Positions 2,271 through 55,941 of a DNA stretch of 64,000 nucleotides are shown piece after piece. The notes under the pieces are model-generated. The model saw only the letters and a list, made by a program, of their open reading frames with translations, searched no databases and was not told the origin of the DNA. Origin of the DNA: Candidatus Zipacnadum vermilionense (GTDB lineage: Bacteria > Armatimonadota > Zipacnadia > Zipacnadales > Zipacnadaceae); contig JALGSV010000017.1 of NCBI GenBank assembly GCA_029821755.1, positions 7,429 to 71,428 of the forward strand, read 5' to 3'. The position numbers were made by a program, and so were the translations under genes. Positions within the stretch are counted from its first letter, which is position 1. Every line of letters starts with the position of its first letter.

Positions 2271-5200
2271 ATGAATGACAGCCCCCATGACTGGCAGAGG
2301 CAGGAGGCGCGCCGGCTGGAGACGCGGGTTGCCGAATCGGCCCGCATCCTGGACGGCTTGATGCGCAGCTCCTTCACGCCCCTGGTCTTGCTCGACCCGA
2401 ACCTCAACTTCGTCCGCGTCAATGAGGCATACGCCCAGGCCTGCGCCAAGGAAGTGGAGGACTTCCCCGGACATAACCACTTCGTGTGGTACCCCTCCGA
2501 AGAGTTGGAGGCCACCTTCCGTCAGGTGGTGGAGAGCAAGCAGCCCTGGGAGACCGAGGCCCGGCCCTTCGTCTTTCCCGACCACTCGGAGTGGGGCACC
2601 ACCTATTGGGACTTGTCGCTTACTCCGCTCCTGGACGACCAGGGCAAGGTGGAGTACCTGGTATTCTCCCTAAAGGACGTCACCGAGCGCGTAACGGCGC
2701 AGCAGGAGCTGGAGGAACACCGGCAGCACCTGGAGGACTTGGTTAGCCAGCGCACCGGGGAACTACGCGAGTCCGAGCAGCGCTACCGGACGGTGGCCGA
2801 CTACGCCTATGGCTGGGAGTGGTGGATGTGGCCGGACGGAAGCTTCGCCTACGTTTCGCCGTCGGCGGAGCGGGTCACCGGCTACCCGGCGCAGAGCTTC
2901 ATGCTCGACCCGGCCTTCTACCACACGATCACCCACGAGGAGGACGTCGCGGGTTTGGAGGAGCACGAGCGGGAGGCGATGGCCAACGAGCGGCCGAGGG
3001 CCTACGAGTTCCGTATCGTGCGCCAGGATGGCCAGATACGGTGGCTCGAGCACATCTGCCAGGCTGTCTATGATACGGAGGGCAACTTCGCGGGACGGCG
3101 GGGCAGCAATCGGGATGTGACTGCGCGCAAGCAGGTCGAGGCCGAGCGCCAAGCTACCCTGGAACTGCTGCGTCTGGTCAACTCCGGCCAGGACCTGACC
3201 AGCCTCCTGCGGGAAGCCACCGGCTTCCTACAGAGACTCTCGGGCTGTGACGCCGTAGGGATCCGCCTACGCGACGGAGGCGATTTCCCGTACTTCGAGA
3301 CCACGGGCTTCTCGGCCGATTTCGTGGCGAAGGAGACCCACCTATGTGCCACCGATGAGCGCCTAGGGCCACTCACCGATGAACAGGGAAACCCTCGTTT
3401 AGAGTGTGTCTGCGGCGCGGTGCTCTCGGGCCGCGTTGACCCGTCCCTGCCTTGCTTCACGCCCGCAGGAAGCTTCTGGACCAACAGCACTACCGACCTG
3501 CTGGCGGGGCTCCGGAGAGATCAGCTAGGCGCCGCCTTCCGCGGCCGCTGCGTGAAGGAGGGCTACGAGTCAGTGGCGCTGGTCCCCTTCCGCGTCGGCG
3601 ACGAGGTGCTGGGATTGGTGCAGTTCAACGACCGAGGCCGGGACCGGTTCACGCTTGACGACATTTCCTGCTTCGAGCGGCTGACCTCCAACCTGGCCGT
3701 CGCGGTGGCGCAGCGCCAAGCCGAGGCCGAACGTGAGCGGCTGTTGCATGACCTGGAGGTTGAGCGGGCGCGGTTTGCCGCGGTGTTAGAGCAGGCGCCG
3801 CTGGGGATCATCGTCGGCGAGGCTCCCAGCGGCAAGCTGATCCTGAGCAACGCCGAGGTAGAGCGCATCTTCCGACACTCCTTCATCCCCAGCGCCGATA
3901 TTGGCGAGTACCGGGCCTGGCAGGGCCTACACCCAGATGGCCAGCCCTATGAGCCGGGGGAGTGGCCACTGGCGCGCGCTCTCACCTCGGGCGAGGTGGT
4001 GCGCGACGAGGAGGTCGACATCATCCGCGGCGATGACACGCACGGCACGATATCACTCAACGCCGCGCCGGTGAGGGACGCCGACGGCAAGATCGTCGCC
4101 GGGGTGGTGGCTTTCGGGGATATCACCTACCGGCGGTGGGCGGAGGAGGAGCTCCACAAATACCAGGAGCACTTGGAGGAGCTGATTGACGAGCGTACCC
4201 GAGAGCTGGAGGAGACCGCCAGCCAACTGGCAGAGCAGCACGCCTTCAGCGAGGCCGTGCTGGCCACGGTGGCGACGCTGATCATGGTCTTGGACAATCA
4301 GGGGCGAATTGTGCGCTTCAACCGGGCCTGCGAGGAAACCACCGGCTATACCTTCGAGGAGGTCGAGGGGCGCCCCTTCTGGGATTTCTTGGTCTTGCCC
4401 GAAGAGGCCGACCAGGTGCGGGACACATGGCAGGAGCTAATCAACAACTTGGCCAATCGCAATGAGAACCATTGGGTCACCAAGGACGGCGGGCGCCGGT
4501 TGATCTCCTTTAACAACACGGTGCTGGTGGGGCCGGAGGGCCTGGTGGAGTATGTCATCGCCTCCGGGCTGGACGTTACCGAACACCGGGAATTGGAGCA
4601 AGCTCTCGCCGGGAGCGAGGAGAAGTACCGGAGTCTAGTCAATGAGGCCAATGTGATGGTTCTGAGCATGAACCCAGCCGGGGAACTCACTTTCATGAGC
4701 CCATATGCCCTCAAGTTCTTCGGCTATACGGAGGAGGAAGTGCTGGGCCGCAACGCACTGGGGATCATCGTGCCGGAGACCGACAGTGAGGGCCACGACC
4801 TGTCGGGGATGGTGTCGGAGATCGCCGGGCGACCCGACGCCTACGGCTACCACGAGAACGAGAACATCACCAAGAACGGGCAGCGCATGTGGATGTCCTG
4901 GTCGAACCAGCCGCTGTACGGTGCAGAGGGGGAGGTCGTCGGACTGCTGAGTATCGGCGTGGACCGCACCGAGCAGAAGCGAGCCGAGGAGATGCTCCAC
5001 GACTACCGGGAGAGCCTGCGGTCGCTGGCCTCGGAGCTGGCCCTAGCCGAGGAGCGCGAGCGGCGGCGCATCGCCGTCGGCATCCACGACCACGTCAGCC
5101 AGACGCTGGCTCTCGCCAAGATGCGGCTGGGCTCGTTGCGCCGCTCGTCGTTAGGGCTGCCCCGGGACGAGTCGCTTGCGGAGGTGGAGAAACTGGTCGA

Positions 5201-5669
5201 TCAGGTTATTGACCACACCCGGACGTTGACCTTCGAGCTAAGCCCGCCGATCCTGTACGAGCTGGGCCTTAATCCGGCGCTGGAATGGGTGTGCGAGGCC
5301 ACCACCAGCCGCCATGGCCTGCCCTGCTACTTAGAGGGCACCCCCAAGCTCCTACCCCTGGCCGACGACGTGCGGGTGGTGCTGTTCCAGGGCGTGCGGG
5401 AACTGCTGAACAACACGGTCAAGCACGCGCAGGCCGGCCGGGCGACTGTAGCCGTGCGGCGCGAAGAGAACTGGGTCCACATCACGGTGGAGGACGACGG
5501 GGTGGGCTTTGACACCGCCGACCTCGGCCGGGCCGTGGGGGAGAAGCAGTCCTTCGGCCTGTTCAACATCCGCGAACGCCTGCAGTACCTGGGTGGCTAC
5601 GTCGAGATCGAGTCCACCCCGGGCGAGGGGACGCGGGTAACACTGACCGCGCCGCTGGTCGAGGAGTAG
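2271..5669 (+). CDS. multi-PAS/GAF sensor histidine kinase (HisKA_3 + HATPase_c, NarL-type partner)
   Basis: Long ORF. The likely start is ATG 2271 (MNDSPHDW...), just after a short upstream ORF stop. It has repeated PAS-like segments. The H-box is HDHVSQTLALAK and is followed by a C-terminal GHKL ATPase block (N, G1, G2: GEGTRVTL). Confidence 0.85.
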   Translation: MNDSPHDWQRQEARRLETRVAESARILDGLMRSSFTPLVLLDPNLNFVRVNEAYAQACAKEVEDFPGHNHFVWYPSEELEATFRQVVESKQPWETEARPFVFPDHSEWGTTYWDLSLTPLLDDQGKVEYLVFSLKDVTERVTAQQELEEHRQHLEDLVSQRTGELRESEQRYRTVADYAYGWEWWMWPDGSFAYVSPSAERVTGYPAQSFMLDPAFYHTITHEEDVAGLEEHEREAMANERPRAYEFRIVRQDGQIRWLEHICQAVYDTEGNFAGRRGSNRDVTARKQVEAERQATLELLRLVNSGQDLTSLLREATGFLQRLSGCDAVGIRLRDGGDFPYFETTGFSADFVAKETHLCATDERLGPLTDEQGNPRLECVCGAVLSGRVDPSLPCFTPAGSFWTNSTTDLLAGLRRDQLGAAFRGRCVKEGYESVALVPFRVGDEVLGLVQFNDRGRDRFTLDDISCFERLTSNLAVAVAQRQAEAERERLLHDLEVERARFAAVLEQAPLGIIVGEAPSGKLILSNAEVERIFRHSFIPSADIGEYRAWQGLHPDGQPYEPGEWPLARALTSGEVVRDEEVDIIRGDDTHGTISLNAAPVRDADGKIVAGVVAFGDITYRRWAEEELHKYQEHLEELIDERTRELEETASQLAEQHAFSEAVLATVATLIMVLDNQGRIVRFNRACEETTGYTFEEVEGRPFWDFLVLPEEADQVRDTWQELINNLANRNENHWVTKDGGRRLISFNNTVLVGPEGLVEYVIASGLDVTEHRELEQALAGSEEKYRSLVNEANVMVLSMNPAGELTFMSPYALKFFGYTEEEVLGRNALGIIVPETDSEGHDLSGMVSEIAGRPDAYGYHENENITKNGQRMWMSWSNQPLYGAEGEVVGLLSIGVDRTEQKRAEEMLHDYRESLRSLASELALAEERERRRIAVGIHDHVSQTLALAKMRLGSLRRSSLGLPRDESLAEVEKLVDQVIDHTRTLTFELSPPILYELGLNPALEWVCEATTSRHGLPCYLEGTPKLLPLADDVRVVLFQGVRELLNNTVKHAQAGRATVAVRREENWVHITVEDDGVGFDTADLGRAVGEKQSFGLFNIRERLQYLGGYVEIESTPGEGTRVTLTAPLVEE

Positions 5670-6513: not shown

Positions 6514-7179
6514 ATGATCAAGGGGCAGCAACAGACACGGGTGGAGCCGGTCGAGATCACTGTGGACGGGGCTCGGTTACAGGGAGACCTCTCCCTGCCA
6601 CCGCAGGCGTCCGGTCTGGTGCTATTCGCGCACGGCAGCGGCAGCAGTCGGCATAGCCCCCGCAACCAATATGTCGCTGAGACCCTCCAGCAAGAGGGCT
6701 TGGCGACGCTCTTGTTGGATTTGCTCACCACCGAAGAGGAGGCGGTGGACGCGTACACCCGCCACTACCGCTTCGATATCCCCCTCCTGGCCGGCCGGTT
6801 GGTGGGAGCCACCGACTGGGCGGCCCACGACGTGCGCACGGTCTCCCTGCCGGTGGGCCATTTCGGCGCCAGCACCGGGGCGGCGGCGGCACTGGTCGCG
6901 GCCGTAGACCGTCCGGAGGTGCTCCGCGCTATCGTCTCTCGCGGCGGCCGGCCGGATCTGGCCGGCGCGGCACTCTCTCAGGTCATAGCCCCCACCCTCC
7001 TGATCGTAGGCGGCTACGACACCCCCGTCATCGCCCTCAATCAGGAGGCCTACAACCAGTTACCCGACGGTAAGGAAATGATGATCGTCCCCCGCGCCAC
7101 GCACCTGTTCGAGGAGCCCGGCGCCCTGGAGGAGGTCGCGCGGCTGGCCGGCGAGTGGTTCCTGCGGCACCTGAAATAA
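6514..7179 (+). CDS. alpha/beta hydrolase (dienelactone-hydrolase-like)
   Basis: 221 aa. It has the LVLFAHGSGSSRHSPRN and GHFGASTGAAAAL (GxSxG) motifs and the conserved C-terminal His region RATHLFEEPG. Confidence 0.7.
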   Translation: MIKGQQQTRVEPVEITVDGARLQGDLSLPPQASGLVLFAHGSGSSRHSPRNQYVAETLQQEGLATLLLDLLTTEEEAVDAYTRHYRFDIPLLAGRLVGATDWAAHDVRTVSLPVGHFGASTGAAAALVAAVDRPEVLRAIVSRGGRPDLAGAALSQVIAPTLLIVGGYDTPVIALNQEAYNQLPDGKEMMIVPRATHLFEEPGALEEVARLAGEWFLRHLK

Positions 7180-7202: not shown

Positions 7203-7242
7203 CATCCCCCCGACCCCCCTTTCCCCTTGTGGGAGAGGGGGG
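7203..7242. repeat. GC-rich hairpin repeat, family 1, copy 1 (CCCCCCTTTCCCC-TTGT-GGGAGAGGGGGG)
   Basis: Near-perfect 12-bp inverted repeat with one mismatch. Its upstream flank CATCCCCCCGACCCCCC resembles the other copies at 16672, 42266 and 43717. It lies between the hydrolase gene and folC. Confidence 0.6.
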
Positions 7243-7367
7243 TCACTACTAACGGTGGCCTTGGCCCCGGGGCGGCGACGGGCGAGGGGTATTTGCCCCG
7301 CGGGAAGGAAAGACGAGTCGAGAGCGCGAATGCCTCTTGTTCGGAACTACCGGGGACGAGATATACC

Positions 7368-10598: not shown

Positions 10599-10905
10599 CT
10601 GTAGGGCGCGGGCTCGTACCGCGCCCCATAGATATGCGGCGGACAGGGCGGGCTAGAAAGCCCGCCCCACGCGGAAACGACTTTCTAAGAGCGTGTACGA
10701 AAAGCCCGGCCGCTTCGTAGGGGCGAGGTCGTTTCCCGCGAAACATCCGCCCGCGCGTGCCGCAGACCGTGAGAATAGTCAGGTTCTCAGCACTCGCGGG
10801 CGGATATTGACGAGCGAGTACGCTCGCCAATATCCGCCCCTACAAAGCCCAGATTCGACTTCTCGTACACGCTCTGAACACAACCCTCGTACCGCGCCCT
10901 ACAGC
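10599..10905. mobile_element. foldback / MITE-like palindromic element (~307 bp) with 13-bp terminal inverted repeats CTGTAGGGCGCGG ... CCGCGCCCTACAG
   Basis: The termini at 10599-10611 and 10893-10905 are exact reverse complements. The interior carries nested inverted repeats: ACGACTTTCTAAGAGCGTGTACGA vs TCGTACACGCTCT, and AAACATCCGCCCGCG vs CGCGGGCGGATATT. It embeds a REP-type hairpin (10604-10626) and a family-2 repeat copy (10631-10675). No transposase-like ORF is present. It is intergenic. Confidence 0.5.
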
Positions 10906-10972: not shown

Positions 10973-11010
10973 CGAAGCTCCGACGTACCCTGTCTCGAAA
11001 GGCCTCCCCT

Positions 11011-12399
11011 ATGACCCGCCATTCTACCCTCCTGGTGATGGCCCTCACTCTTGTCCTGCCCGGAGTTGTGCTTGCCATGACCTCGAACGTGGCCGTGCCC
11101 TACAACCCTGATCCCTCCCCCCCGCGGTCACATGACGTGACCTTCTACACCGAGCGGCCCTCCGATTTCCTGTTCGACAGCGGAGACGAGATAGTCATCA
11201 TCTGCCAGTCATGGCGGCGATGCCTGGACCTGGACTGGGCGCTGTGCCGCAACATGGTGCGCACGCCGGTGCGCACCGGCCACGTTGCGCCGCTGCCCGG
11301 CAACTGCTACCGGATCGCAATCCCTACGGCGGGTCTTCTGCCGGGCTTCTACGACCTGCGGGTGAAGGTGCGCTACTCCGACAGCGACACCGGCGAGGGG
11401 GTCACCACCTTCGGTTGGCGGATCAACGAGGAACCGATCGTGGAGTACAAGCCAGACGACTTCGAGGCCTTCTGGGCGCAGGCGGTGGCGGACTTGCACC
11501 AGATCCCGCTGGACCTGCAGGTGGAACTGCAGCGGACGTTGGAGGGGCCGGAGATCGGCAAGTACAACTACGAGCATGCGGCCCTGCCCGAGCATCCCGA
11601 CCCCGTGGGGGAGAGGTACAATAGGGTAGAGGTCTACAAGGTAGACTTCGCCTCGTGCGACGGCAAGCGGGTGTACGCCTGGTTCACCAAGCCGGTGGGG
11701 GAGGGGCCGTTCCCGGGGCTGCTGGTGCTGCCGGGAGCGGGGACGGGGCCGCGGCCGGCGCCGGTGGAGCATGCGGCGCAAGGCTTTGCGGCGATGGATA
11801 TCCAGGTCCATAACCAGCCGGTAGACCTGGAGCGCTCGGCCTATCCGCCCTACCCGGCGGAGGACCTCAGCGCACCGGAAAAGATGGTGCATTACTACGT
11901 GTATCTAAACGCGCTGCAGGCGGTGAGCGCGCTGGCGGCCTGTCCGGGAGTAGACGCGGAGCGGCTGGCTTGCGCCGGGGGAAGCCAGGGCGGGCGGCTG
12001 AGCATCGTCGTTCCGGCGCTCGATCGGCGGATCAAGGCCACGGTCCCGGCCATCGCGCATTATGCCTACCTGCCGTGGCTGCACTGGACCGAGCGGATGA
12101 ATAAGCAGAAGAAGAGCGGCGCGGCGGGCTTCGCCCCGCGCGCCCTGCGGCCCACACAGACCACGGTGACGGAGAGCTACTTCGACATCGTCAACTTCGC
12201 GCCGCTGGTGCGCTGCCCGGTGCTGATGAACGCGGGGCTGATCGACCCGGTCTCGCCGGCCACGGGCGTCTTTGCGACCTACCGCAGTCTGACCTGCCCC
12301 AAGGAGATAGTCCCCATGCCCACCTGCGGCCACGACATCTCCTTTGCCTTTGACCGCCACGCCTTCCGGTGGCTGGAGGAGAAGCTGGAGGTGAAGTAA
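11011..12399 (+). CDS. secreted CE7-like acetyl-xylan esterase / cephalosporin-C deacetylase family serine hydrolase with an N-terminal extension
   Basis: Signal peptide MTRHSTLLVMALTLVLPGVVLA. The CE7 signature GGSQGG is present (CAGGSQGGRLSIVV). The C-terminal region DIVNFAPLVRCPVLMNAGLIDPVSPATGVFATYRSL resembles the CE7 block YFDxxNFAxR...GLxDxxCPPS, and the catalytic His is in CGHD. Confidence 0.65.
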   Translation: MTRHSTLLVMALTLVLPGVVLAMTSNVAVPYNPDPSPPRSHDVTFYTERPSDFLFDSGDEIVIICQSWRRCLDLDWALCRNMVRTPVRTGHVAPLPGNCYRIAIPTAGLLPGFYDLRVKVRYSDSDTGEGVTTFGWRINEEPIVEYKPDDFEAFWAQAVADLHQIPLDLQVELQRTLEGPEIGKYNYEHAALPEHPDPVGERYNRVEVYKVDFASCDGKRVYAWFTKPVGEGPFPGLLVLPGAGTGPRPAPVEHAAQGFAAMDIQVHNQPVDLERSAYPPYPAEDLSAPEKMVHYYVYLNALQAVSALAACPGVDAERLACAGGSQGGRLSIVVPALDRRIKATVPAIAHYAYLPWLHWTERMNKQKKSGAAGFAPRALRPTQTTVTESYFDIVNFAPLVRCPVLMNAGLIDPVSPATGVFATYRSLTCPKEIVPMPTCGHDISFAFDRHAFRWLEEKLEVK

Positions 12400-12864: not shown

Positions 12865-14589
12865 GTGACTCAGCGTCTCAATGATGGTTCGATCGCAAAA
12901 TCATTCGTAATCACCCCGAAAGTTGATGAAAGGCGAGAGTTCCTCGAGATCTCTCGTGACTTCGGCAACCCGCTGGAACTGGTGCGGGAGGCCGTCAGCA
13001 ACTCATACGACGCCGGCGCGGAGGAGATACAGATCCTCTTCGACATGGTGCAGAGTGCCGGAGAGGACGTTCTCCGCATTTGCATCAACGACGACGGCGA
13101 GGGCATGGACGAAGGGGCATTGCAGGCTTTTTTTGACCTAGGAAACTCGCCGCGCAGAGAGCAGCGCCTCCAGGACCCGACCGTGATCCTGATCGGAGAG
13201 AAGGGGCACGGGACGAAGGTCTACTTCAACAGCGCCAGGATAGAAGTGACAACGTGCCGCGGGGCGGATCAAGACGAGTACAAGGCGGTCTTCGACAAGC
13301 CCTTCGCTCGCCTGAACGATTCCGAAAGCTCGCTGGAAGTGCAGGTCACGAGCAGACAGCCTCCGTCATGGTGGCACGGAACGAGAATCGAGATACTGAA
13401 CTACAACAAGAGCCGGCGCGGGCGTTTTTCTCACGCTCAGTTGCGGGACTATGTGCTGTGGTTCACTAGGTTCGGGTCTGTCCGAGACGAGCTCACCGAC
13501 GAACGGGACCCGACGGTCATGCGCTTGAAGGGCCTGGACCGCGAGGAACCCGAGAAGCTTGTGGCCGGTCACGTCTTTCCGAAGGAGAGCCCACCGACGA
13601 GTAAGCTGCTCGACGACTACATGGTCAAAGCGCCCGACCACTACGCCCGCCGCCTCAGGCGGCGGGGGCACTTGCCGGACTCTCCTGACATTGCTTACGA
13701 TGCGAGCTTCTGGGTGGAGGGGGACGGTATCAAGAGCGAGTACAACCCTATGATCCGCCGGCAAGGAAAACCGAGGCAAGAGGGTTCCTACCAGGTCCAG
13801 GAAAGGTACGGACTTTGGCTGTGCAAGGACTTCGTGCCTATTGAGGCTAGGAACGAGTGGATCATCACCAAGGGCCGTGAGTTCACAAAATTCCACGCAT
13901 TCTTCAACTGCCAGGCGTTCAACCTGACGGCAAACCGCGGGTCTGTGCAGAACACGCCGAGCGAGATTCTCGCCGAGGCCGAGAAGGTGTGCAAGGGCAT
14001 CTATCACGAGATTCTCGGGTCCACGGAGTGGACCGACCTGGAGTACCTCGACGAGCAGGCGGGAGCCTACACGACCTTGAAGAACGAACGGCGCGGGCTC
14101 GAGAGGCGGGTGAAGCACATAAAAAACGCACCGCGATGCGAGTACAAGGGGCGGACAATCCTAGCACCCAAGCAGGAGGCGGGGGTCTACTCGGTGTTCC
14201 TCATTCTGTCCATTCTCGAGCCGGACCTGTTCCCCTTCGAGGTGCTGGACTATGACACGCACCAGGGCATCGACATAGTCGCTCAGCCAAGAGGCGATAC
14301 GCCGATGACTGAGACCAAGCTCCGGTACGTGGAGTTCAAATATAGGTTAAGCGCCGGCTTCAACCACACCTTCGACAACCTGCACTCCATCGTTTGCTGG
14401 GAATTGGGACGCCAAGTCGATGAGGAGGTGCAGGACGCAGCCCAAAACCGACGTACACTCCAGAAAGCGCCACCTGGGGACGGTGAGCCAACGAAGTACT
14501 TCCTTGACGATCCAAAGAGTCCTCGTAAGATCGAGGTCCTCCTCCTACCTTTGTTCATCGATGAATGTTGCGGTATCAGATTCCAATAG
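12865..14589 (+). CDS. orphan GHKL-superfamily ATPase (HATPase_c_3-like Bergerat fold) with a long uncharacterised C-terminal region
   Basis: GTG start with GGAGGTGA upstream. The N-terminal ELVREAVSNSYDAGAEEIQI...ICINDDGEGMD matches the N-box and G1 of GHKL ATPases. The remaining ~400 aa carry no motif I recognise. GC is about 55%, against about 67% for the surrounding genome. Confidence 0.7.
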   Translation: MTQRLNDGSIAKSFVITPKVDERREFLEISRDFGNPLELVREAVSNSYDAGAEEIQILFDMVQSAGEDVLRICINDDGEGMDEGALQAFFDLGNSPRREQRLQDPTVILIGEKGHGTKVYFNSARIEVTTCRGADQDEYKAVFDKPFARLNDSESSLEVQVTSRQPPSWWHGTRIEILNYNKSRRGRFSHAQLRDYVLWFTRFGSVRDELTDERDPTVMRLKGLDREEPEKLVAGHVFPKESPPTSKLLDDYMVKAPDHYARRLRRRGHLPDSPDIAYDASFWVEGDGIKSEYNPMIRRQGKPRQEGSYQVQERYGLWLCKDFVPIEARNEWIITKGREFTKFHAFFNCQAFNLTANRGSVQNTPSEILAEAEKVCKGIYHEILGSTEWTDLEYLDEQAGAYTTLKNERRGLERRVKHIKNAPRCEYKGRTILAPKQEAGVYSVFLILSILEPDLFPFEVLDYDTHQGIDIVAQPRGDTPMTETKLRYVEFKYRLSAGFNHTFDNLHSIVCWELGRQVDEEVQDAAQNRRTLQKAPPGDGEPTKYFLDDPKSPRKIEVLLLPLFIDECCGIRFQ

Positions 14590-14655
14590 ACGCGCTGAGC
14601 GGGGCCGTTTCTCACCGGGAGCGCTCCAGGTACATTGACGCGAGGAGAAGAGCCA

Positions 14656-17223
14656 ATGTCGGACCGATACGATTTTCATGCCCTCGAGCCCAAGTGGCAG
14701 CAGCGCTGGGCGGAACGGAAGCTGTTTACTACCGTCACCTCCACGGAACGGCCCAAGTTCTACTACTTGGACATGTTCCCCTACCCCTCCGGCGACCTGC
14801 ACATGGGGCATGTGCGCAACTACATCATCGGCGATGTGATTGCGCGGCATCGGCACATGCAAGGGTTCAACGTCATGCACCCCATGGGCTGGGACGCCTT
14901 CGGCCTGCCCGCCGAGAACGCGGCCATCGAGCGCGGCATTCATCCCGCTATCTGGACCCAGGCTTCTGTGGTGAAGATGAAGGAGCAGTTCGACGCGCTG
15001 GGGATCACCTATGACTGGGCCCGCGAGGTCAACGCCGCCGCGCCGGACTACTACCAGTGGACCCAGTGGCTGTTCCTGCAGCTCTACCAGGCCGGTCTGG
15101 CCTACCGCGGGGAGGCCTCCGTGAACTGGTGCGGGTCGTGCAACACTGTGCTGGCGCGGGAGGAGCTGGAGGGCGCGGTCTGCGAGCGCTGCGGGACGCC
15201 GGTGGAGATCCGCCGCGTCCCGGGCCAGTGGTTCTTTGGCATCACCAAGTACGCCGAGCGCCTGCTGGAGGATATCGCCTTGCTGGGCAAGTGGCCCGAG
15301 CGGGTGCGCGTTATGCAGGAGAACTGGATCGGGCGCTCCACGGGCGTCCAGTTCCGGCTGGCGCTGGAGAACCGCCAAGGCCGGGCCGCCGGCCAGGAGA
15401 TCGAGGTCTTCACCACCCGCATCGACACCATCTATGGCATCACCTTCATGGCCGTGGCCGCCGAGCACCCCCTGGTCAAGGAACTGACCGCCGGGACCGA
15501 GCAGGAGGCGGCGGTGGCGGAGTTCGTGCGCCAGGCGGCGGTGGAGGCGGCTACCGACCGCGAGGCCGCGGCGGTGGAGAAGAAGGGGATGTTTCTGGGC
15601 GCCTACTGCCTGCACCCGCTGACCGGCGAGCGCGTGCCGATCTACGTGACCAACTACGTGCTGATGGAGTACGGCACCGGCGCGGTCATGGCCGTCCCCG
15701 CCCATGACCAGCGCGACCTGGAGTTCGCGCGGGAGTATGGGATTCCGGTGAAAGTGGTGATTCAACCGGAAGGGGAGAGCCTCGATCCCGCCACCATGAC
15801 CGAGGCGTACGTGGATCCCGGCGTCATGGTCAACTCCGGCTCCTACGACGGCATGACCAGCGCGCAGTTCACGGAGGCCATCGCTGACTTTCTGGAGGCT
15901 AACGGAATCGGGGAGCGGCGGGTCAACTACCGGCTGCACGACTGGCTGATCAGCCGCCAGCGCTACTGGGGCTGCCCCATCCCCATCCTCACCTGCGAGA
16001 ACTGTGGCGACGTGCCCGTGCCGGAGGAGCAGCTCCCGGTGCTGCTGCCGGAGCAGGCCGACTTCACCCCCACCGGGGAGTCGCCGCTGGCCCGCGTGCC
16101 CGAGTTCGTCAACACCACCTGCCCCCGCTGCGGCGGCCCGGCGAAACGCGAGACCGATACCATGACCACCTTTGTGGACTCGTCGTGGTACTACCTGCGC
16201 TACGCCAGCCCCGAGGCGACGGACGTGCCCTTCCGGCGTAGCGAGGCGGACTACTGGCTGCCGGTGGACAAATACGTGGGCGGGGTGGAGCACGCCGTAC
16301 GGCACCTGCTCTACTCGCGCTTCATCACCAAGGCGCTCCATGACCTGGGTCTCATTTCCTTCGTGGAGCCCTTCACGGAACTGTTCACGCAGGGGATGAT
16401 CTACAAAGACGGCGCGAAGATGAGCAAGTCCAAGGGCAACGTGGTGCGCCCCGAGGAGATCAGCGACCGGTACGGCACCGATACCGGGCGGACGTTCATC
16501 CTCTTCGTTGGTCCGCCCGACCAGGACGCGGAATGGAGCGACCGCGGCGTAGAGGGCTGCCACCGCTTCCTGCAGCGGGTGTGGCGGGCGGTGGTGGAGA
16601 ACGAGGAGCTGTGGCTGCCGGAGTGGGCGGAGGCGCTCTCTCCCGGTGGCGCCCGCGTCTCGCCCGCCGATCCTACCCCCCTGCCCCCCTCCCTAAAGGG
16701 AGGGGGGAGTGGAGGGGAGGCGTGCCGCGCCCTGCGCCGCAAGACCCACCAGACCATCGCCCGCGTCACCGACGATATCGCCAACATGCGTCTGAACACC
16801 ATGATCAGTGCCATGATGGAACTGACCAACGACCTGCTGCCCTTTGCGGCGCAGTTGACCGCCGAGGACACCGCCGGGCGGGCGGCGTTCAGCGAGGGTG
16901 TGGCTACGCTGCTGCACCTGCTCTCCCCGACCGCCCCGCACCTGTGCGACGAGCTGTGGGAGCGCCTGGGCCACGAGGGCAGCCTCTACGAGCAGCCCTG
17001 GCCGGAGTACGACGCGGCCATCGCCGCCGCCGAGAAGATCACCATCGTGGTGCAGATCAACGGCAAGGTCCGCGATCGTCTGGAGGTCCCTGCCGACACG
17101 CCGATGGAGAGGGTCCAGGAGCTGGCGCTGGCCCGCCCCACCATCCAGAAACAGGTGGAGGGCAAGACGATGCGGAAAGTGGTTGCGGTGGAGGGGAAGC
17201 TGGTGAACTTTGTGGTGGGGTAG
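14656..17223 (+). CDS. leuS: leucine--tRNA ligase
   Basis: The HMGH (HIGH-class) motif is present in YPSGDLHMGHVRNY, and KMSKS is present. The CP1 editing domain and a zinc-binding CxxC region are both present. GAGGAG sits 7 nt upstream of ATG 14656. Confidence 0.95.
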   Translation: MSDRYDFHALEPKWQQRWAERKLFTTVTSTERPKFYYLDMFPYPSGDLHMGHVRNYIIGDVIARHRHMQGFNVMHPMGWDAFGLPAENAAIERGIHPAIWTQASVVKMKEQFDALGITYDWAREVNAAAPDYYQWTQWLFLQLYQAGLAYRGEASVNWCGSCNTVLAREELEGAVCERCGTPVEIRRVPGQWFFGITKYAERLLEDIALLGKWPERVRVMQENWIGRSTGVQFRLALENRQGRAAGQEIEVFTTRIDTIYGITFMAVAAEHPLVKELTAGTEQEAAVAEFVRQAAVEAATDREAAAVEKKGMFLGAYCLHPLTGERVPIYVTNYVLMEYGTGAVMAVPAHDQRDLEFAREYGIPVKVVIQPEGESLDPATMTEAYVDPGVMVNSGSYDGMTSAQFTEAIADFLEANGIGERRVNYRLHDWLISRQRYWGCPIPILTCENCGDVPVPEEQLPVLLPEQADFTPTGESPLARVPEFVNTTCPRCGGPAKRETDTMTTFVDSSWYYLRYASPEATDVPFRRSEADYWLPVDKYVGGVEHAVRHLLYSRFITKALHDLGLISFVEPFTELFTQGMIYKDGAKMSKSKGNVVRPEEISDRYGTDTGRTFILFVGPPDQDAEWSDRGVEGCHRFLQRVWRAVVENEELWLPEWAEALSPGGARVSPADPTPLPPSLKGGGSGGEACRALRRKTHQTIARVTDDIANMRLNTMISAMMELTNDLLPFAAQLTAEDTAGRAAFSEGVATLLHLLSPTAPHLCDELWERLGHEGSLYEQPWPEYDAAIAAAEKITIVVQINGKVRDRLEVPADTPMERVQELALARPTIQKQVEGKTMRKVVAVEGKLVNFVVG
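16672..16720. repeat. GC-rich hairpin repeat, family 1, copy inserted in-frame inside leuS (CCCCCCTCCC-TAAA-GGGAGGGGGG core)
   Basis: The core is a perfect 10-bp stem with a TAAA loop. The extended arms are CCTACCCCCCTGCCCCCCTCCC and GGGAGGGGGGAGTGGAGGGGAGG. The element encodes ...PTPLPPSLKGGGSGGEA... within a variable linker of LeuS before the anticodon-binding domain. The same family occurs intergenically at 7203, 42266 and 43717. Confidence 0.6.
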
Positions 17224-17240: not shown

Positions 17241-18302
17241 ATGGCAGTCCAACATGCGCTCTTCTCTGAGGTCTTGCCCGCCTTTCCTTCGACGCGTTAC
17301 CAAGGGAGCAAGTCTAAACTGGTGGATTGGATCTGGCGCCAGATCGCCGACCTCAGTTTTGACACGTGCCTTGACGCGTTCGGAGGAACGGGGACAGTTG
17401 CCTATAGATTCAAGCAGGCAGGCAAGTCGGTCACTTACAACGACTCGCTGCGCTTCAACTACTACATCGGACTTGCGCTCATCGAGAACAGCCAAGTTCG
17501 GCTTTCGCCCGACGAGGTCGAAGGGCTCCTGCACAGGCATCCCGGTATCGAGTACCCCAGCTTTATCACCGACACCTTCCACGATGTCTATTTTACTGAT
17601 GCTGAGAACGCGTGGCTCGATCAAACCATCACCAACCTTCGTCGTCTAGATGACGAGTGCAAATTCGCCCTTGCCTCCTTCGCCCTGTGCCAGGCTTGCA
17701 TCATCAAGCGACCCTACAACCTCTTCCACCGAAAGAATCTGTACATGCGACTGTCGAAGGTGCAAAGGTCCTTCGGGAACAAGGTGACATGGGATCGGCC
17801 TTTCGAGGACTGGTTTCGCGTCTTCGTCGCTGAGGCCAATGAGGCGGTATTCGACAACGGGCGACTCAACCACGCCGCTAACTTCGACGCGGTGGAGATC
17901 GAGCAGCCATACGACCTGGTCTACGTCGACCCGCCGTATGTTTCCAGCCGCGGCACTGCCGTGGATTACCGGGACTTCTATCACTTCCTGGAAGGCTTGA
18001 CAATGTATGACGAGTGGCCAGAGCACATAGACTGGCACTCGAAGCACCGACGACTGGTCCCCAAACGGACGCCGTGGGCCGATAAGCGTGCCATTCTGAG
18101 CGCCTTTGACCACCTCTTCGCGAGATTCCAGGACAGCATCATCGTTGTCTCGTACCGGACCGACGGCATTCCGTCCGAGCAGGAACTTGCCTCGGTTCTT
18201 CATCGCTATAAGAAGAATGTTCTCGTGGAACACTACGGCCACTACAAGTACGTGCTATCCAGGAAAGGGGACTCCAAGGAGATGTTGCTCGTAGGGACAT
18301 GA
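17241..18302 (+). CDS. N6-adenine DNA methyltransferase, D12 class (Dam / M.EcoRV family)
   Basis: Motif I is LDAFGGTG. The motif YQGSKSK matches the Dam (Y/W)xGxK motif. Catalytic motif IV is DPPY, in DLVYVDPPY. GC is about 55%. The gene overlaps the downstream endonuclease gene by ATGA. Confidence 0.85.
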   Translation: MAVQHALFSEVLPAFPSTRYQGSKSKLVDWIWRQIADLSFDTCLDAFGGTGTVAYRFKQAGKSVTYNDSLRFNYYIGLALIENSQVRLSPDEVEGLLHRHPGIEYPSFITDTFHDVYFTDAENAWLDQTITNLRRLDDECKFALASFALCQACIIKRPYNLFHRKNLYMRLSKVQRSFGNKVTWDRPFEDWFRVFVAEANEAVFDNGRLNHAANFDAVEIEQPYDLVYVDPPYVSSRGTAVDYRDFYHFLEGLTMYDEWPEHIDWHSKHRRLVPKRTPWADKRAILSAFDHLFARFQDSIIVVSYRTDGIPSEQELASVLHRYKKNVLVEHYGHYKYVLSRKGDSKEMLLVGT

Positions 18303-19120
18303 GTCCGCATACAGGAGGCAGAATGATTGCCGAACAGTTTCGGAGCCAATTGATGGACTACTGCGCGAGGTTCAGGGAGGCCCTATCAACCGAAGCTGGC
18401 GACTGGGCCGTGAAGGGCTTCATAGATGTGTACCGCAACATCTACACCATCTCCGCAGACACCAAGGTCATCTCGAAGATCATCGAACTGATGCTCTTTC
18501 CCCTCATTTCCCTTTTCGCCGAGGAGAACGGCTACAAGATGGTTCTTTCCGAGTATCAGAACCACTACCCTGACGTGACTTTCGTGGCCCAAGACGGAAC
18601 CAAGATCGCCCTAGATCTAAAGAGTACCTACCGGACGGATGAGAACACTGTGAACGGTTTTACGCTTGGGTGCTTTACTGGCTACTTCCGTGACCGGGAG
18701 AGCGAGAAGAATATCACTTTTCCTTACGGGGATTACGCGTGTCACCTCGTGCTGGGTGTCATTTACTCCCGAACCGAGGAGTACCTGGATGAGCGTCATG
18801 TCTATCCCATCGAGGACCTACCGAACATTCTCTCGGTCGTCAAAGATTTCGAGTTCCTGGTGCAGGGGAAATGGTGCATCGCCGGAACGCGACCGGGTAG
18901 TGGGAATACCAAGAACATCGGTTCAGTGAATCGGGTCGCTGATCTGACTGGCGGCACAGGCCCCTTTGCACGACTCGGGGAGGAAGTCTTCGACGATTAC
19001 TGGACCAATTACCTCACGAAGGACATGGCGCGGGCCATTGACTCCAAGGTGCCATACCGGAATCTGCAGGAGTATCTCGCCTGGCGGAAACCCAGCAAGC
19101 GGGCGAGGTCACCCCGATAA
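18299..19120 (+). CDS. type II restriction endonuclease, EcoRV family (PD-(D/E)xK)
   Basis: There is block-by-block similarity to EcoRV. SADTKVISKIIELMLFPLISLFAEENGY aligns with GSDTKVLSTIFELFSRPIINKIAEKHGY. QNHYPDVTF...KIALDLKSTY aligns with QQNHYPDFTL...KIAIDIKTTY, which carries the catalytic D/D/K. GFTLGCFTGY, KWCIAGTRPGSGNTKNIGS and DDYWTNY align with KFTLGGYTSF, KWVIAGDLAGSGNTTNIGS and LDYWRNY. GC is about 52%. Confidence 0.85.
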   Translation: MSPHTGGRMIAEQFRSQLMDYCARFREALSTEAGDWAVKGFIDVYRNIYTISADTKVISKIIELMLFPLISLFAEENGYKMVLSEYQNHYPDVTFVAQDGTKIALDLKSTYRTDENTVNGFTLGCFTGYFRDRESEKNITFPYGDYACHLVLGVIYSRTEEYLDERHVYPIEDLPNILSVVKDFEFLVQGKWCIAGTRPGSGNTKNIGSVNRVADLTGGTGPFARLGEEVFDDYWTNYLTKDMARAIDSKVPYRNLQEYLAWRKPSKRARSPR

Positions 19121-39262: not shown

Positions 39263-39296
39263 TGTTTCACGTGAAACAATTGTTTCACGTGAAACA
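39263..39296. promoter_or_regulatory. tandem perfect 16-bp palindromes TGTTTCACGTGAAACA-AT-TGTTTCACGTGAAACA (candidate operator)
   Basis: There are two identical, perfectly self-complementary 16-mers 2 nt apart. They sit in the about 190-bp AT-richer intergenic region upstream of the M16 peptidase operon. Confidence 0.5.
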
Positions 39297-42265: not shown

Positions 42266-42310
42266 GCCTCACCTCCTGCCCCCTCTCCTTGCAGGAGAGG
42301 GGGAGCCTGG
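42266..42310. repeat. GC-rich hairpin repeat, family 1, copy 3 (CCCCCTCTCC-TTGCA-GGAGAGGGGG), terminator-like
   Basis: Perfect 10-bp stem. The flank GCCTCACCTCCTGCCCCCTCTCC is shared with copy 4. Confidence 0.6.
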
Positions 42311-42369
42311 GAAGGGCTCCCAACTCCCAACTCGCGACTCGCGACTTTCGATTCCCCCGGAGGGCAGCT

Positions 42370-43716: not shown

Positions 43717-43765
43717 GCCTCACCCCCTTGCCCCCTCTCCCTCGCCGGGCTCGGGAGGAGGGGGT
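43717..43765. repeat. GC-rich hairpin repeat, family 1, copy 4
   Basis: GCCTCACCCCCTTGCCCCCTCTCCC-(11 nt loop)-GGGAGGAGGGGG. It lies between convergent genes. Confidence 0.55.
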
Positions 43766-43827
43766 GTCGGGGAAGGGGAGGCAGCGGTCCGGGGCGACAG
43801 ACAGCGCCCCGGCGGACCGGGCGGGCG

Positions 43828-55542: not shown

Positions 55543-55941
55543 ATGGCACAATGTTCGATAGTAGAATGGAAACCGACGGTCCCGATACACATCGTGATCT
55601 GGATCATTCTCACCGAGCGGGCTCTGGGCCCTAATCGTCCTGTTACCGCAGCGGTAATCGCCGACTTGGCAGGAATTCGGGACAACGCGCAGCAAACGCT
55701 GACGCGCCGGATTATCCGGGAGATGGTTCGCCTAGGCGCGCCGATCATCGGATCGTCTCGGGGGTTCTTCGTAGCAACCGACCCTGAGCAGGTCTTTCAC
55801 GGGGGGTATTGCCTCCTTGATCGCGCTGCCGAGGTTGAGGCACATGGCCGGGATCTGCTTCAGATTCACCAGAATCTCGGGGAGCACGGCCCCAACGACG
55901 AAAACGGAGAGACCATGCGCATGCGCATGGTCTCTCCCTGA
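55543..55941 (+). CDS. hypothetical winged-HTH protein (HTH_36-like, phage/plasmid-type)
   Basis: AGAGGAGGTGA SD. ILTERALGPNRPVTAAVIADLAGIRDNAQQTLTRRIIREMVRLGAPIIGS fits the wHTH pattern found in replication/regulatory proteins of mobile elements. Confidence 0.45.
   Translation: MAQCSIVEWKPTVPIHIVIWIILTERALGPNRPVTAAVIADLAGIRDNAQQTLTRRIIREMVRLGAPIIGSSRGFFVATDPEQVFHGGYCLLDRAAEVEAHGRDLLQIHQNLGEHGPNDENGETMRMRMVSP

Follow-up and report, generated by a model that had tools for sequence, protein, structure and literature searches.

How did a perfect G:C hairpin come to lie, in frame, inside the gene for an essential enzyme? We address this question for the leucyl-tRNA synthetase (LeuRS) gene in a 64-kb stretch of genomic DNA (64,000 nt, the window), where a short palindromic repeat, family A, interrupts leuS next to the remains of a second hairpin family, family B. 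The features within the gene are as follows:

14635..17223, + strand: leuS (leucyl-tRNA synthetase), 862 aa from TTG 14635 in the ORF list
16641..16668, + strand: decayed family B remnant (core GGCGTCTCGCC), encoding ..GGARVSPA.., recognized by DNA alignment and folds of relatives' inserts
16672..16720, + strand: family A copy, 49 bp, supported by sequence, fold, pattern statistics and a cross-phylum profile (E 2e-4)
16672-16683, + strand: 5′ tail of this copy, CCTACCCCCCTG
16684-16693 paired with 16698-16707, + strand: its stem, closing the loop TAAA
16708-16720, + strand: its 3′ G-rich segment, which forms an imperfect outer stem

A database protein (P0001) matches the window LeuRS at 100% and starts at M8, corresponding to ATG 14656 and a length of 855 aa. 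The protein carries the Pfam domains tRNA-synt_1, tRNA-synt_1_2 and Anticodon_1 and matches PDB 1H3N with E 7.5e-256. The family A copy within it, with the letters CCTACCCCCCTG-CCCCCCTCCC-TAAA-GGGAGGGGGG-AG-TGGAGGGGAGG, is in frame and is translated as PTPLPPSLKGGGSGGE (the peptide is also cited as PLPPSLKGGGSGG); its tail, CCTACCCCCC, has one C fewer than the family A consensus. The stem consists of 10 perfect G:C pairs, extended by the imperfect outer stem, and the 71 nt around the copy are predicted to fold as RNA at −43.9 kcal/mol (z = −3.1). In the AlphaFold2 model, whose mean pLDDT is 88.8, codons 672–692 (16648..16710, + strand) are the sole internal segment with pLDDT below 50. This segment is predicted to be a loop joining helices 664–668 and 694–716 of the anticodon-binding domain, and it aligns to a loop of the Thermus thermophilus LeuRS, residues ~700–718.

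The general layout of family A is a tail plus a hairpin, CCTCACCCCC-nn-CCCCTCYCC-loop-GGRGAGGGG. Three further copies lie in the window:

7203..7250, + strand: intergenic copy with tail CCCATCCCCCCGA and a 14-bp stem GACCCCCCTTTCCC/GGGAGAGGGGGGTC; profile E 6e-3; 3′ of an alpha/beta-hydrolase gene whose stop is at 7179
42266..42320, + strand: intergenic copy, GCCTCACCTCCTG plus CCCCCTCTCC-TTGC-AGGAGAGGGGG; profile E 6e-6; between a stop at 42208 and the probable ATG 42370 of a dTDP-sugar isomerase-like gene
43717..43782, + strand: intergenic copy with a long loop and outer stem GCCTCACCCCC ... GGGGAAGGGGAGGC; profile E 0.012, the match covering tail and 5′ arm; between convergent genes

The copy at 43717 is the weakest of the four, because its fold is no better than those of shuffled sequences. 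The four have diverged from each other and are therefore not recent copies. The preliminary description, made from sequence alone, had listed copies at 7203, 16672, 42266 and 43717, one in frame inside leuS and three intergenic, and had noted the perfect 10-bp G:C stem; all of this held by sequence, ORF positions and fold prediction. Its proposal that the hairpin could affect leuS translation remains a suggestion only. Its label of terminator-like for the intergenic copies is true only in the sense that they are hairpins: no T-run directly follows the hairpin at any of the four window copies, and without U-tracts they are not canonical terminators, so that we reject a terminator function.

Chance does not explain the window copies. 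The genome has a G+C content of 66%. We defined family A by a 5′ tail C(C/T)CACCCCC, a spacer of 1–6 nt, a stem CCCCTCYC(C)/(G)GRGAGGGG and a loop of 3–9 nt, and the leuS copy, with its 5-nt spacer, qualifies. The pattern ACCCCC-N1-6-CCCCTCYC-N3-9-GRGAGGGG matches the leuS copy alone in the window and nothing in 100 shuffles, whereas the patterns CCCCCTC-N4-24-GAGGGGG and CCCTCYC-N2-12-GRGAGGG give 3 and 2 window matches, respectively, each against 0.09 expected. An nhmmer profile was then trained on 148 copies taken from unrelated genomes of other phyla, using a structured alignment because MAFFT left-aligned 80 hairpins and left their 3′ arms unplaced. This profile recovers exactly four window sites, at 42266 (6e-6), 16675 (2e-4), 7209 (6e-3) and 43717 (0.012), and at a cut-off of E = 10 no others in the 64 kb apart from reverse-strand matches to the same four palindromes. 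The window's own leuS copy escapes the exact pattern of the genome scan, because its spacer is off by a single base, which shows that the pattern had not been fitted to the window.

Comparison with relatives shows that the leuS copy occupies a loop with a longer history of insertion. LeuRS orthologues of at most 68% identity have ~30 residues fewer at the insert point, and the closest relative (L001, 83% identity) has unrelated sequence at the position of the element. The preliminary description had taken the linker to be shorter in typical LeuRS, which held, and had accepted that finding the same peptide in relatives' LeuRS would refute an insertion; orthologue alignment did not find it, because the more distant orthologues lack the segment and L001 has unrelated sequence there. 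The view that the whole segment is the insert held only in part: the family A element accounts for only ~16 of the ~30 extra residues, and the loop already had an older family B insertion. At this same loop six relatives (68–84% identity, DNA examined) have different sequence, with the second hairpin family in most of their inserts and none recognizable in one, and the intact hairpins that relatives have at this position are homologues of the family B remnant in the window. The strict family B core does not occur in the window, and a search for family B in unrelated loci gave 3 matches, the chance level. Loop length and sequence vary between relatives, and inserts persist at the loop across the whole lineage. 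DNA alignment of the leuS copy with relatives revealed neither a target-site duplication nor a clean insertion boundary, ruling out a clean insertion with target-site duplication. Family A also occurs in intergenic DNA in the contigs of four relatives, and one relative (L006) has a family A module in frame at another leuS site, an independent insertion.

Family A is not lineage-specific. We found it in Sphingomonas, E. coli, Prevotella, Bacteroidota, cyanobacteria, CPR bacteria and Armatimonadota-like MAGs, and its 5′ flank is conserved across phyla although the search pattern did not demand one. E. coli has a median of 5 family A-like copies per genome at the stringency used, one of which adjoins ycjD, a DUF559 gene.

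Copies of the module are scattered through the source genome and its relatives, and in many phyla the module shows physical linkage to DUF559 genes. First, a DUF559 ORF lies at most 100 bp away in 12 of 120 hairpin-selected loci, and when all ORFs up to 700 nt from 150 copies (the 120 loci) were clustered, DUF559 was the sole recurrent neighbour family, with 11 loci versus at most 2 for any other. Second, in a reciprocal test of loci selected on DUF559 alone (found with a 5-sequence alignment), 29 of 80 have a hairpin within 250 bp, 17 of these on both sides, against a background of just 12 hairpins in the rest of the DNA of these loci (~309 kb in all). Allowing loops of up to 12 nt adds five DUF559 loci, and ~60% of DUF559 loci have no hairpin under the pattern used. 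In the full element, a DUF559 gene of ~0.5 kb sits between inverted modules (5′-CCTCACCCC-nn-hairpin ... DUF559 ... hairpin-nn-GGGGGTGAGG-3′), the terminal inverted repeats (TIRs) sharing the tail-hairpin module with gene-less copies. Family A also often forms inverted doublets 50–150 bp apart, and the arrangement around DUF559 is not uniform: the tails may point outward or inward, and some flanks are long direct repeats instead. A regular expression for the 3′ tail matches only 4 of 149 single copies, which are thus mostly one-ended; we dropped the idea that single copies generally carry both tails.

The DUF559 protein is Vsr-like with a PD-(D/E)XK fold, its profile matching PDB 3HRL and the homing endonuclease I-Bth0305I (3R3P). 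DUF559 is not known to act enzymatically on family A hairpins, and we found no paper in the searchable literature linking it to hairpin repeats or in-frame insertions. Neither the 64-kb window nor the relatives' contigs (L001–L006, ~78 kb) contain a DUF559 gene; what connects this genome with DUF559 is therefore membership of the sequence family alone.

Conserved genes harbour full elements as well as single ends in frame, and where comparison with orthologues places the ends of an insertion, the tail-hairpin modules sit precisely there. Pfam-confirmed hosts of in-frame DUF559 are LeuRS (4 loci), a type ISP restriction–modification protein, MetH, DegT, HisF, TsaB, a helicase, DNA methylases, GlgB and a Hint domain; those of single hairpins are AlaRS, IleRS, PriA, PurL, E2, M19, M16, FtsJ and glycosidases. 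In LeuRS, family A occurs at four different loops, and it lies inside about a dozen other conserved proteins. Mobility of the family, past or present, had been proposed at the outset and is supported; the accompanying claim that in-frame insertions into essential genes are rare failed for family A, for which they recur across phyla.

The structure of these insertions is informative in several respects. For the LeuRS full elements, orthologues lack the whole unit including its ends, and no hairpin-only state was seen at one of the sites (site 0). The flanks of full elements are complete hairpins with both arms rather than half-sites, and one locus (L179) has a single end exactly at the position of the full element in another (L108). 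Host-embedded DUF559 copies retain all invariant residues. No target-site duplication is visible at the four LeuRS insertions. An intein or self-splicing intron was rejected as an explanation: Pfam finds no Hint domain in LeuRS, MetH or the other hosts except L186, which alone has Hint_2, and Rfam gives 0 hits in the window at the gathering threshold (at a lax threshold, generic miRNA-type hairpin matches only). Among copies, the three forward frames are stop-free in 88–97% of cases and the reverse frames in 72–75%.

We therefore consider it likely, with a probability of roughly 0.75, that leuS carries a single, non-autonomous end of a Bacteria-wide mobile element whose full form bears a DUF559 gene. 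We infer that leuS acquired the copy only after this lineage and its nearest sampled relative had diverged, and that the insertion point was a surface loop in the anticodon-binding domain, already enlarged by another hairpin repeat. It may have been kept because the C/T-rich and G/A-rich arms are usually stop-free and because a flexible peptide rich in Pro, Ser, Leu, Gly and Glu would leave the fold undisturbed as a harmless loop; the apparent LeuRS hotspots would, by the same inference, mostly reflect the tolerance of these loops for insertions. Movement or copying of the ends might be the work of DUF559, whether it cuts in the manner of a homing nuclease or recognizes the hairpin as a structure-specific nuclease; this is inferred and has not been shown. 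Several observations count against this reading: the varied arrangements flanking DUF559 are not predicted by a single simple transposition mechanism, and target-site duplications are missing from the full elements as well as from leuS, which also lacks a clean boundary. To these are added the lack of DUF559 in the window and the relatives' contigs, the divergence among the four window copies, the majority of DUF559 loci without a hairpin under the pattern used, and the fact that no activity of DUF559 on these hairpins is known to us.

Among the alternatives, the one that survives best, while remaining unlikely, is that pre-existing hairpins serve as the target site of DUF559, on this view an invading homing endonuclease gene, with the hairpins spreading by other means and the leuS copy being independent of DUF559. 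In its favour, the association between hairpin and DUF559 is far from obligatory, the variable flanks with their long direct repeats resemble a split repeat-rich site, one DUF559 is placed within a Hint domain as classical intein endonucleases are, and DUF559 is related to I-Bth0305I. Against it, the flanks are whole hairpins and not half-sites, and LeuRS orthologues are without the entire unit, a hairpin-only state being unseen at site 0; the single end of L179 at the L108 site fits gene loss equally well.

Less probable again is that family A is an ordinary REP/REPIN moved by a RAYT (an IS200/IS605-like Y1 transposase), with DUF559 a bystander. The short G:C-rich palindrome with its asymmetric 5′ tail, the REPIN-like spacing of the inverted doublets and the mostly intergenic position of the window copies, 3′ of genes, would fit. 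However, a GTAG or CGTC head is absent, the head being CCTCACCCCC in the 148 copies and the window copies; no recurrent transposase was found among the ORFs within 700 nt of the 150 copies, only DUF559 (the window ORFs were only partly Pfam-scanned); and family A has nearly the same sequence across many phyla. REP families are typically lineage-specific.

The remaining two alternatives are very unlikely. In the first, which is already largely refuted, template switching or slippage would have produced the segment locally, the loop being hypervariable and G+C-rich, and the segment would resemble the family only by convergence. This could draw on the variability of the loop among relatives, the missing insertion boundary and the G+C content of the genome, but tail, spacer and stem match the profile from other phyla without false hits in 64 kb, shuffles give zero matches, and the same module sits elsewhere in leuS in L006 and between genes in four relatives' contigs. 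That the hairpin is instead a selected leuS feature, a regulatory mRNA structure or functional peptide, can point to the very stable RNA structure and the persistence of loop inserts across the lineage, but is opposed by a loop unconserved in sequence and length and occupied in relatives by a different repeat family, a peptide predicted to be disordered, identical modules in intergenic DNA and unrelated genes, and the absence of an Rfam family match.

Returning to the mobile-element reading, a bolder version, towards which we lean slightly less than away, holds that the tail-hairpins are the ends of an undescribed DUF559-driven mobile class that enters conserved genes in frame all over the bacterial domain, returns repeatedly to aminoacyl-tRNA synthetases and to LeuRS in particular, and leaves behind large populations of hairpins without the gene, among which E. 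coli BoxC may belong. If true, it would give DUF559 a function, explain a cross-phylum repeat and show how, in general, essential proteins can gain new loops and a nuclease domain. Linkage to a widespread nuclease-fold DUF makes several matters testable: the role of DUF559 proteins such as E. coli YcjD, the spread of REP-like repeats without RAYT, and the share of selfish DNA in lineage-specific insertions of essential enzymes. In practice, such inserts are a possible source of error in gene calling, orthologue alignment and phylogenies based on aminoacyl-tRNA synthetase genes, and they create spurious ‘PSPxPLPxxGEG’ hypothetical proteins.

Several known systems share parts of this behaviour. 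BoxC, a catalogued G:C-rich repeat of E. coli (56 bp, about 22–32 copies; PMC2267715), is similar to family A in size and might correspond to the family A-like E. coli copies; the literature searched reports no function or associated gene for it. REP/REPIN sequences with RAYT (PMC3733652) are likewise short, G:C-rich, mostly extragenic hairpins with an asymmetric tail and inverted doublets, copies of which flank a protein gene. By contrast, family A has no GTAG/CGTC head, flanks a PD-(D/E)XK DUF559 gene rather than an HUH Y1 transposase gene, enters genes in frame and is conserved in sequence across phyla. MITEs and their parent insertion sequences (PMC10969869) also combine a gene-bearing full element between terminal inverted repeats with many gene-less derivatives. 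For family A, however, neither a DDE transposase nor target-site duplication was seen, the derivatives are mostly single ends rather than paired TIRs, and the full element is in frame with its host.

Vsr-like homing endonucleases such as I-Bth0305I (PDB 3R3P) and the ‘fractured gene’ endonucleases (PMC2677866) belong to the same PD-(D/E)XK Vsr-like clade (PMC3424549) and insert into conserved genes, and the ShiLan element (PMC11855218) resembles ours in the in-frame read-through of an endonuclease without intein or intron. Known Vsr-like cases lie in group I introns, between split inteins or out of frame in phage genes, whereas DUF559 is itself in frame in bacterial chromosomal genes, bracketed by hairpins and accompanied by a large gene-less hairpin population. 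The hairpins of ‘fractured genes’ are translational regulators of phage-type endonuclease genes, and we rejected them as members of family A.

Finally, the Rickettsia palindromic elements (RPEs; Ogata et al. 2000, 2002, as summarized in PMC10969869), 100–150 bp long and confined to Rickettsia, although a few endosymbionts have analogues, are likewise palindromic selfish repeats that occur between genes and in frame in unrelated housekeeping genes, where they are translated into extra surface segments that the host fold accommodates. The resemblance is in behaviour only; no sequence similarity is claimed. RPEs have no known enzyme gene, whereas family A is shorter (~35–50 bp), G:C-rich and linked to DUF559. 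In-frame ‘protein-coding palindromes’ have so far been treated as a peculiarity of Rickettsia; the family A module spans many phyla.

leuS, the leucyl-tRNA synthetase (LeuRS) gene of this 66% G+C window, carries one of four local copies of family A, a short tail-plus-hairpin repeat.

Features of leuS and of the repeats in the window
14635..17223, forward strand: leuS; 100% identity to its database twin P0001, usual LeuRS Pfam domains
16672-16720, forward strand: family A copy in leuS; CCTACCCCCCTG CCCCCCTCCC TAAA GGGAGGGGGG AG TGGAGGGGAGG
16641-16668: decayed remnant of family B, a second hairpin family, just upstream of the leuS family A copy
7203, 42266 and 43717: further family A elements, all intergenic

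The leuS copy has a perfect 10-bp G:C stem within an imperfect outer stem, and its 71-nt RNA folds at −43.9 kcal/mol (z = −3.1). Hairpin patterns of the family A type occur three times in the window against 0.09 expected, and a second pattern twice against 0.09. Of the intergenic copies, one comes after a stop codon, another is in what is probably a 5′ leader, and the third separates convergent genes; none of the three is followed by a T-run, and they are therefore hairpins, not canonical terminators. The preliminary description had placed four copies at these positions, one of them in frame in leuS, which is upheld by sequence, fold, pattern statistics and profile; it had also called the other three intergenic and terminator-like, of which the second part is true only insofar as they form hairpins.

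The leuS segment is an insertion relative to orthologues. In an alignment of 120 LeuRS homologues, about 30 residues between the helices ...RFLQRVWR... and ...RRKTHQTI... are missing from every protein at ≤68% identity except P0009. Each of the eight closest relatives (P0002-P0009, 67-83% identity) has an insert here, differing among them in length and sequence, and in L001, the nearest relative with DNA (83%), flanks common with the window enclose unrelated sequence of about 25 nt where the window has the 49-bp element. The same peptide in orthologues, which would have refuted the original proposal, was looked for in the LeuRS homologues and not met, because the inserts differ and the L001 sequence is unrelated. 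The segment occupies a disordered surface loop that has received insertions more than once: the site aligns with the T. thermophilus LeuRS loop at about residues 700-718, between two anticodon-binding-domain helices, and in an AlphaFold2 model of the window LeuRS (mean pLDDT 88.8) the sole internal stretch predicted below pLDDT 50, residues 672-692, is exactly the inserted residues.

The DNA of this loop was read in the six relatives for which it could be retrieved (L001-L006). In most, the insert is a family B hairpin with the core GGCGTCTCGCC or its complement, reaching a 25-bp stem in L003 (GGCACCGGCGTCTCGCCGGTGTC...GACACCGGCGAGACGCCGGTGCC), with shorter versions in L001, L002 and L005; the L006 insert is a different G:C hairpin, and that of L004 shows no clear hairpin. 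No intact family B core was found in the window. In L003, family B doublets occupy two leuS sites and four intergenic places within 22 kb. Intergenic family A copies are also present in L002, L003 and L006, and L004 has a more distant hairpin. The leuS of L006 further carries family A in frame at a different place, a CP1 editing-domain loop (window residue ~372), encoding PHPLPPPLAGEGVG; here family A entered leuS independently, again keeping the frame.

The L003 doublets of family B (GGCACCGGCGTCTCGCCGGTGCC) are REPIN-like and inverted, at 10997-11100, 11942-12035 and 12917-12980, and also at 1413, 5581 and 19120. One doublet, with a GACGGGCGAGACGCCCGTC hairpin after it, is inserted identically at two different leuS loops of this one genome, both insertions encoding SGTGVSPVSG..GDTGETPVPPG, and a similar doublet is intergenic nearby.

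Beyond these relatives, the leuS segment belongs to a dispersed, cross-phylum tail-hairpin family. A scan of one genome per GTDB species with the pattern ACCCCC-N1-4-CCCCTCYC-N3-9-GRGAGGGG (22 specified bases) returned at least 120 stretches, spread over Sphingomonas, Hymenobacter, Prevotella, Bacteroidales, Chloroflexota, Gemmataceae, cyanobacteria, Pseudomonas, Xanthomonas, Clostridia, Chthonomonadaceae and CPR bacteria, with genomes of 33-45% G+C among them. In nearly all 150 copies the four unspecified bases 5′ of ACCCCC read C(C/T)C or related, so the unit is CCTCACCCCC-nn-hairpin. The exact pattern misses the leuS copy by one spacer base; with the spacer widened to up to 6 nt the copy matches, and shuffles give zero. 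Searched with an nhmmer profile of 148 foreign copies, the window gives the four known sites and no others (E = 6e-6, 2e-4, 6e-3 and 0.012), all further window matches up to E = 10 being reverse-strand matches to those sites; the profile also recovers the L002, L003 and L006 copies. A family A-like 45-mer is present in 4,427 of 5,426 complete E. coli genomes.

Tandem arrays of family A also occur: three copies with a 78-bp period (L016 60-247), five copies (L099 445-801) and three in-frame copies in PurL (L039 ~5370-5470), encoding GEGSGVGSCPGEGSGVGSCPGEGPGVG.

Family A is physically tied to genes for DUF559, a Vsr-like PD-(D/E)XK endonuclease domain. First, between pairs of family A copies 400-500 bp apart there recurs a small ORF with a common motif, found by tblastn ≤100 bp from the hairpin in 12 of 120 hairpin-selected loci and identified by Pfam as DUF559 (PF04480; E down to 7e-39). 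Its profile matches PDB 3HRL ('endonuclease-like protein', E 3e-33) and the homing endonuclease I-Bth0305I (3R3P, 5e-5), in agreement with the grouping of Vsr, DUF559 and I-Bth0305I in one PD-(D/E)XK clade (PMC3424549). Second, in an all-against-all comparison of ORFs ≤700 nt from a hairpin, DUF559 was the sole recurrent neighbour (11 loci versus ≤2 for others). Third, in the reciprocal test, 80 metagenome loci (~309 kb in total) were chosen solely for a DUF559 relative; a CCCTCYC-loop-GRGAGGG hairpin lies ≤250 bp from the DUF559 match in 29 of them, on both sides in 17, and only 12 such hairpins occur elsewhere in these loci. Allowing longer loops qualifies five additional loci. A decayed hairpin closes ycjD, the DUF559 gene of E. 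coli K-12; after it come a second copy of the ycjD 3′ end and a hairpin whose tail is GGGTGAGGGG.

At that E. coli locus (L208, NC_000913.3; 11195-11430, record 1351194-1351429), the decayed hairpin encodes the last codons of ycjD. The duplicate of its 3′ end lies ~60 bp downstream, followed by CCCCTCGCCCCTCTGGGGAGAGGGTTAGGGTGAGGGG, an arrangement that looks like what is left of a second element copy.

Flank architecture around DUF559 is variable. In L130 (2780-3470), L201 and L189, an embedded DUF559 has on its flanks not simple inverted ends but long direct repeats (35-55 codons), each with hairpins, which a simple TIR model does not explain.

Family A resides in frame in conserved proteins, with or without the DUF559 gene. 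Many copies lie in long open frames, low-G+C genomes included. Single in-frame hairpins have as Pfam-identified hosts AlaRS, two IleRS, PriA, PurL, an E2 acyltransferase linker, M19 dipeptidase, M16 peptidase, FtsJ, a fucosidase, a large glycosidase and a MacB-type permease. For the complete hairpin-DUF559-hairpin unit, the in-frame hosts identified by Pfam are LeuRS (L026, L150, L179 and L108), a type ISP restriction enzyme, MetH, DegT aminotransferase, TsaB, an Upf1-like helicase and two DNA methylases; with HisF and GlgB the unit is on the N-terminal side. Among the 80 loci chosen for DUF559, no fewer than 20 show an open frame that continues ≥250 codons past the match, and embedded DUF559 copies keep all invariant residues. 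Alignment of the LeuRS hosts gives four separate insertion sites.

Insertion sites in LeuRS
Site 0, catalytic core/editing domain junction: full elements in L026, L150 and L179
Site 1, editing-domain loop: family A in L006; family B in L003, P0006 and P0003
Site X, before ..RETDTM..SSWYYLRY: full element in L108; single right end in L179 at exactly the same place
Site 2, the window's loop: also a weaker hairpin in L108 (Bacteroidota-type LeuRS), with mismatched stem and no tail, encoding DPSPSEKGRG

In the DNA, the insertions are bounded by the modules, 5′-CCTCACCCC-nn-hairpin ... DUF559 ... hairpin-nn-GGGGGTGAGG-3′, and no target-site duplication was seen at the LeuRS insertions. Across 149 copies, any one forward frame is free of stops in 88-97% and any one reverse frame in 72-75%, the products being Pro/Ser/Leu/Gly/Glu/Arg-rich peptides.

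In L186 (1474-3558), Hint-domain segments of an FAD-binding protein enclose an in-frame DUF559 domain, which apparently acts as the endonuclease of an intein-like insert; family A hairpins lie upstream here too. Additional hairpin families are in frame in Bacteroidota-type genes, among them CCCCCACCGGGGGAGATTTAGAGGGGG, which encodes SPTGGDLEGAG in the LeuRS of L150 (~5150-5200), and those giving PSGGDLEGA / SPKSSPEGKDL around DUF559 in DegT genes (L138 and L151); the ends of DUF559 elements may therefore be of several kinds.

The window has other features around and beyond leuS. Lower-G+C islands (0.54-0.60 versus ~0.67) bracket the gene at 17247-19120 and 12865-14589, with a D12-class N6-adenine DNA methyltransferase and an EcoRV-family restriction endonuclease (E 4e-99) downstream and a 574-aa HATPase_c_3 protein upstream. 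In L002 and L003, ThuA and URO-D genes follow leuS instead, so the islands look like inserted defence or R-M islands. Also seen were a perfect 34-bp palindrome at 39263-39296, two overlapping copies of TGTTTCACGTGAAACA with the appearance of a tandem operator for a dimeric regulator; a perfect 16+16 nt palindrome without spacer at 55904-55939 (GGAGAGACCATGCGCA/TGCGCATGGTCTCTCC); and, unrelated to families A and B, a hairpin at 10798-10839 whose 19-nt arms, 95% complementary, enclose a loop of 4 nt, GGGCGGATATTGACGAGCG-AGTA-CGCTCGCCAATATCCGCCC.

We infer that the leuS copy would be a non-autonomous end or remnant of a DUF559-type element and that DUF559 may be the enzyme behind the spread of family A, for which no biochemistry is available; the LeuRS 'hotspots' would reflect mainly loop tolerance of insertions. 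Against this reading, the window copies have diverged from one another, no DUF559 gene was found in the window or the relatives' contigs, and flank architecture varies. A serious alternative on mechanism is that DUF559 is a homing gene targeting pre-existing hairpins. A RAYT-driven REP family is unlikely, as the GTAG/CGTC head is absent and no recurrent transposase was found among neighbouring ORFs. Local origin of the segment by slippage is all but excluded by the lack of shuffle matches and the recovery of the window sites with foreign copies. The preliminary reading of a mobile in-frame repeat rests on a real finding and is essentially right. Taken alone, the leuS copy would be an RPE-like in-frame repeat; the added interest comes from its setting, an element found across Bacteria that is associated with DUF559 and recurrently lives in frame within genes.

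We found no description of the DUF559-hairpin association in the literature searched, whose coverage was incomplete, so prior description is not excluded; the family A repeat may equal E. coli BoxC (PMC2267715), an identity that remains unverified. Related to the DUF559 elements are Vsr-like homing endonucleases (PMC2677866; 3R3P) and ShiLan, an in-frame non-splicing endonuclease insertion (PMC11855218). Like REP/REPIN-RAYT and IS/MITE pairs, family A has a gene-bearing form and gene-less copies, but what it encodes is a PD-(D/E)XK nuclease, and complete elements keep the reading frame. Rickettsia palindromic elements (RPEs), selfish palindromes that lie in frame within housekeeping genes (PMC10969869), are alike in behaviour, whereas they differ in size, sequence and host range, and only family A has a candidate enzyme.
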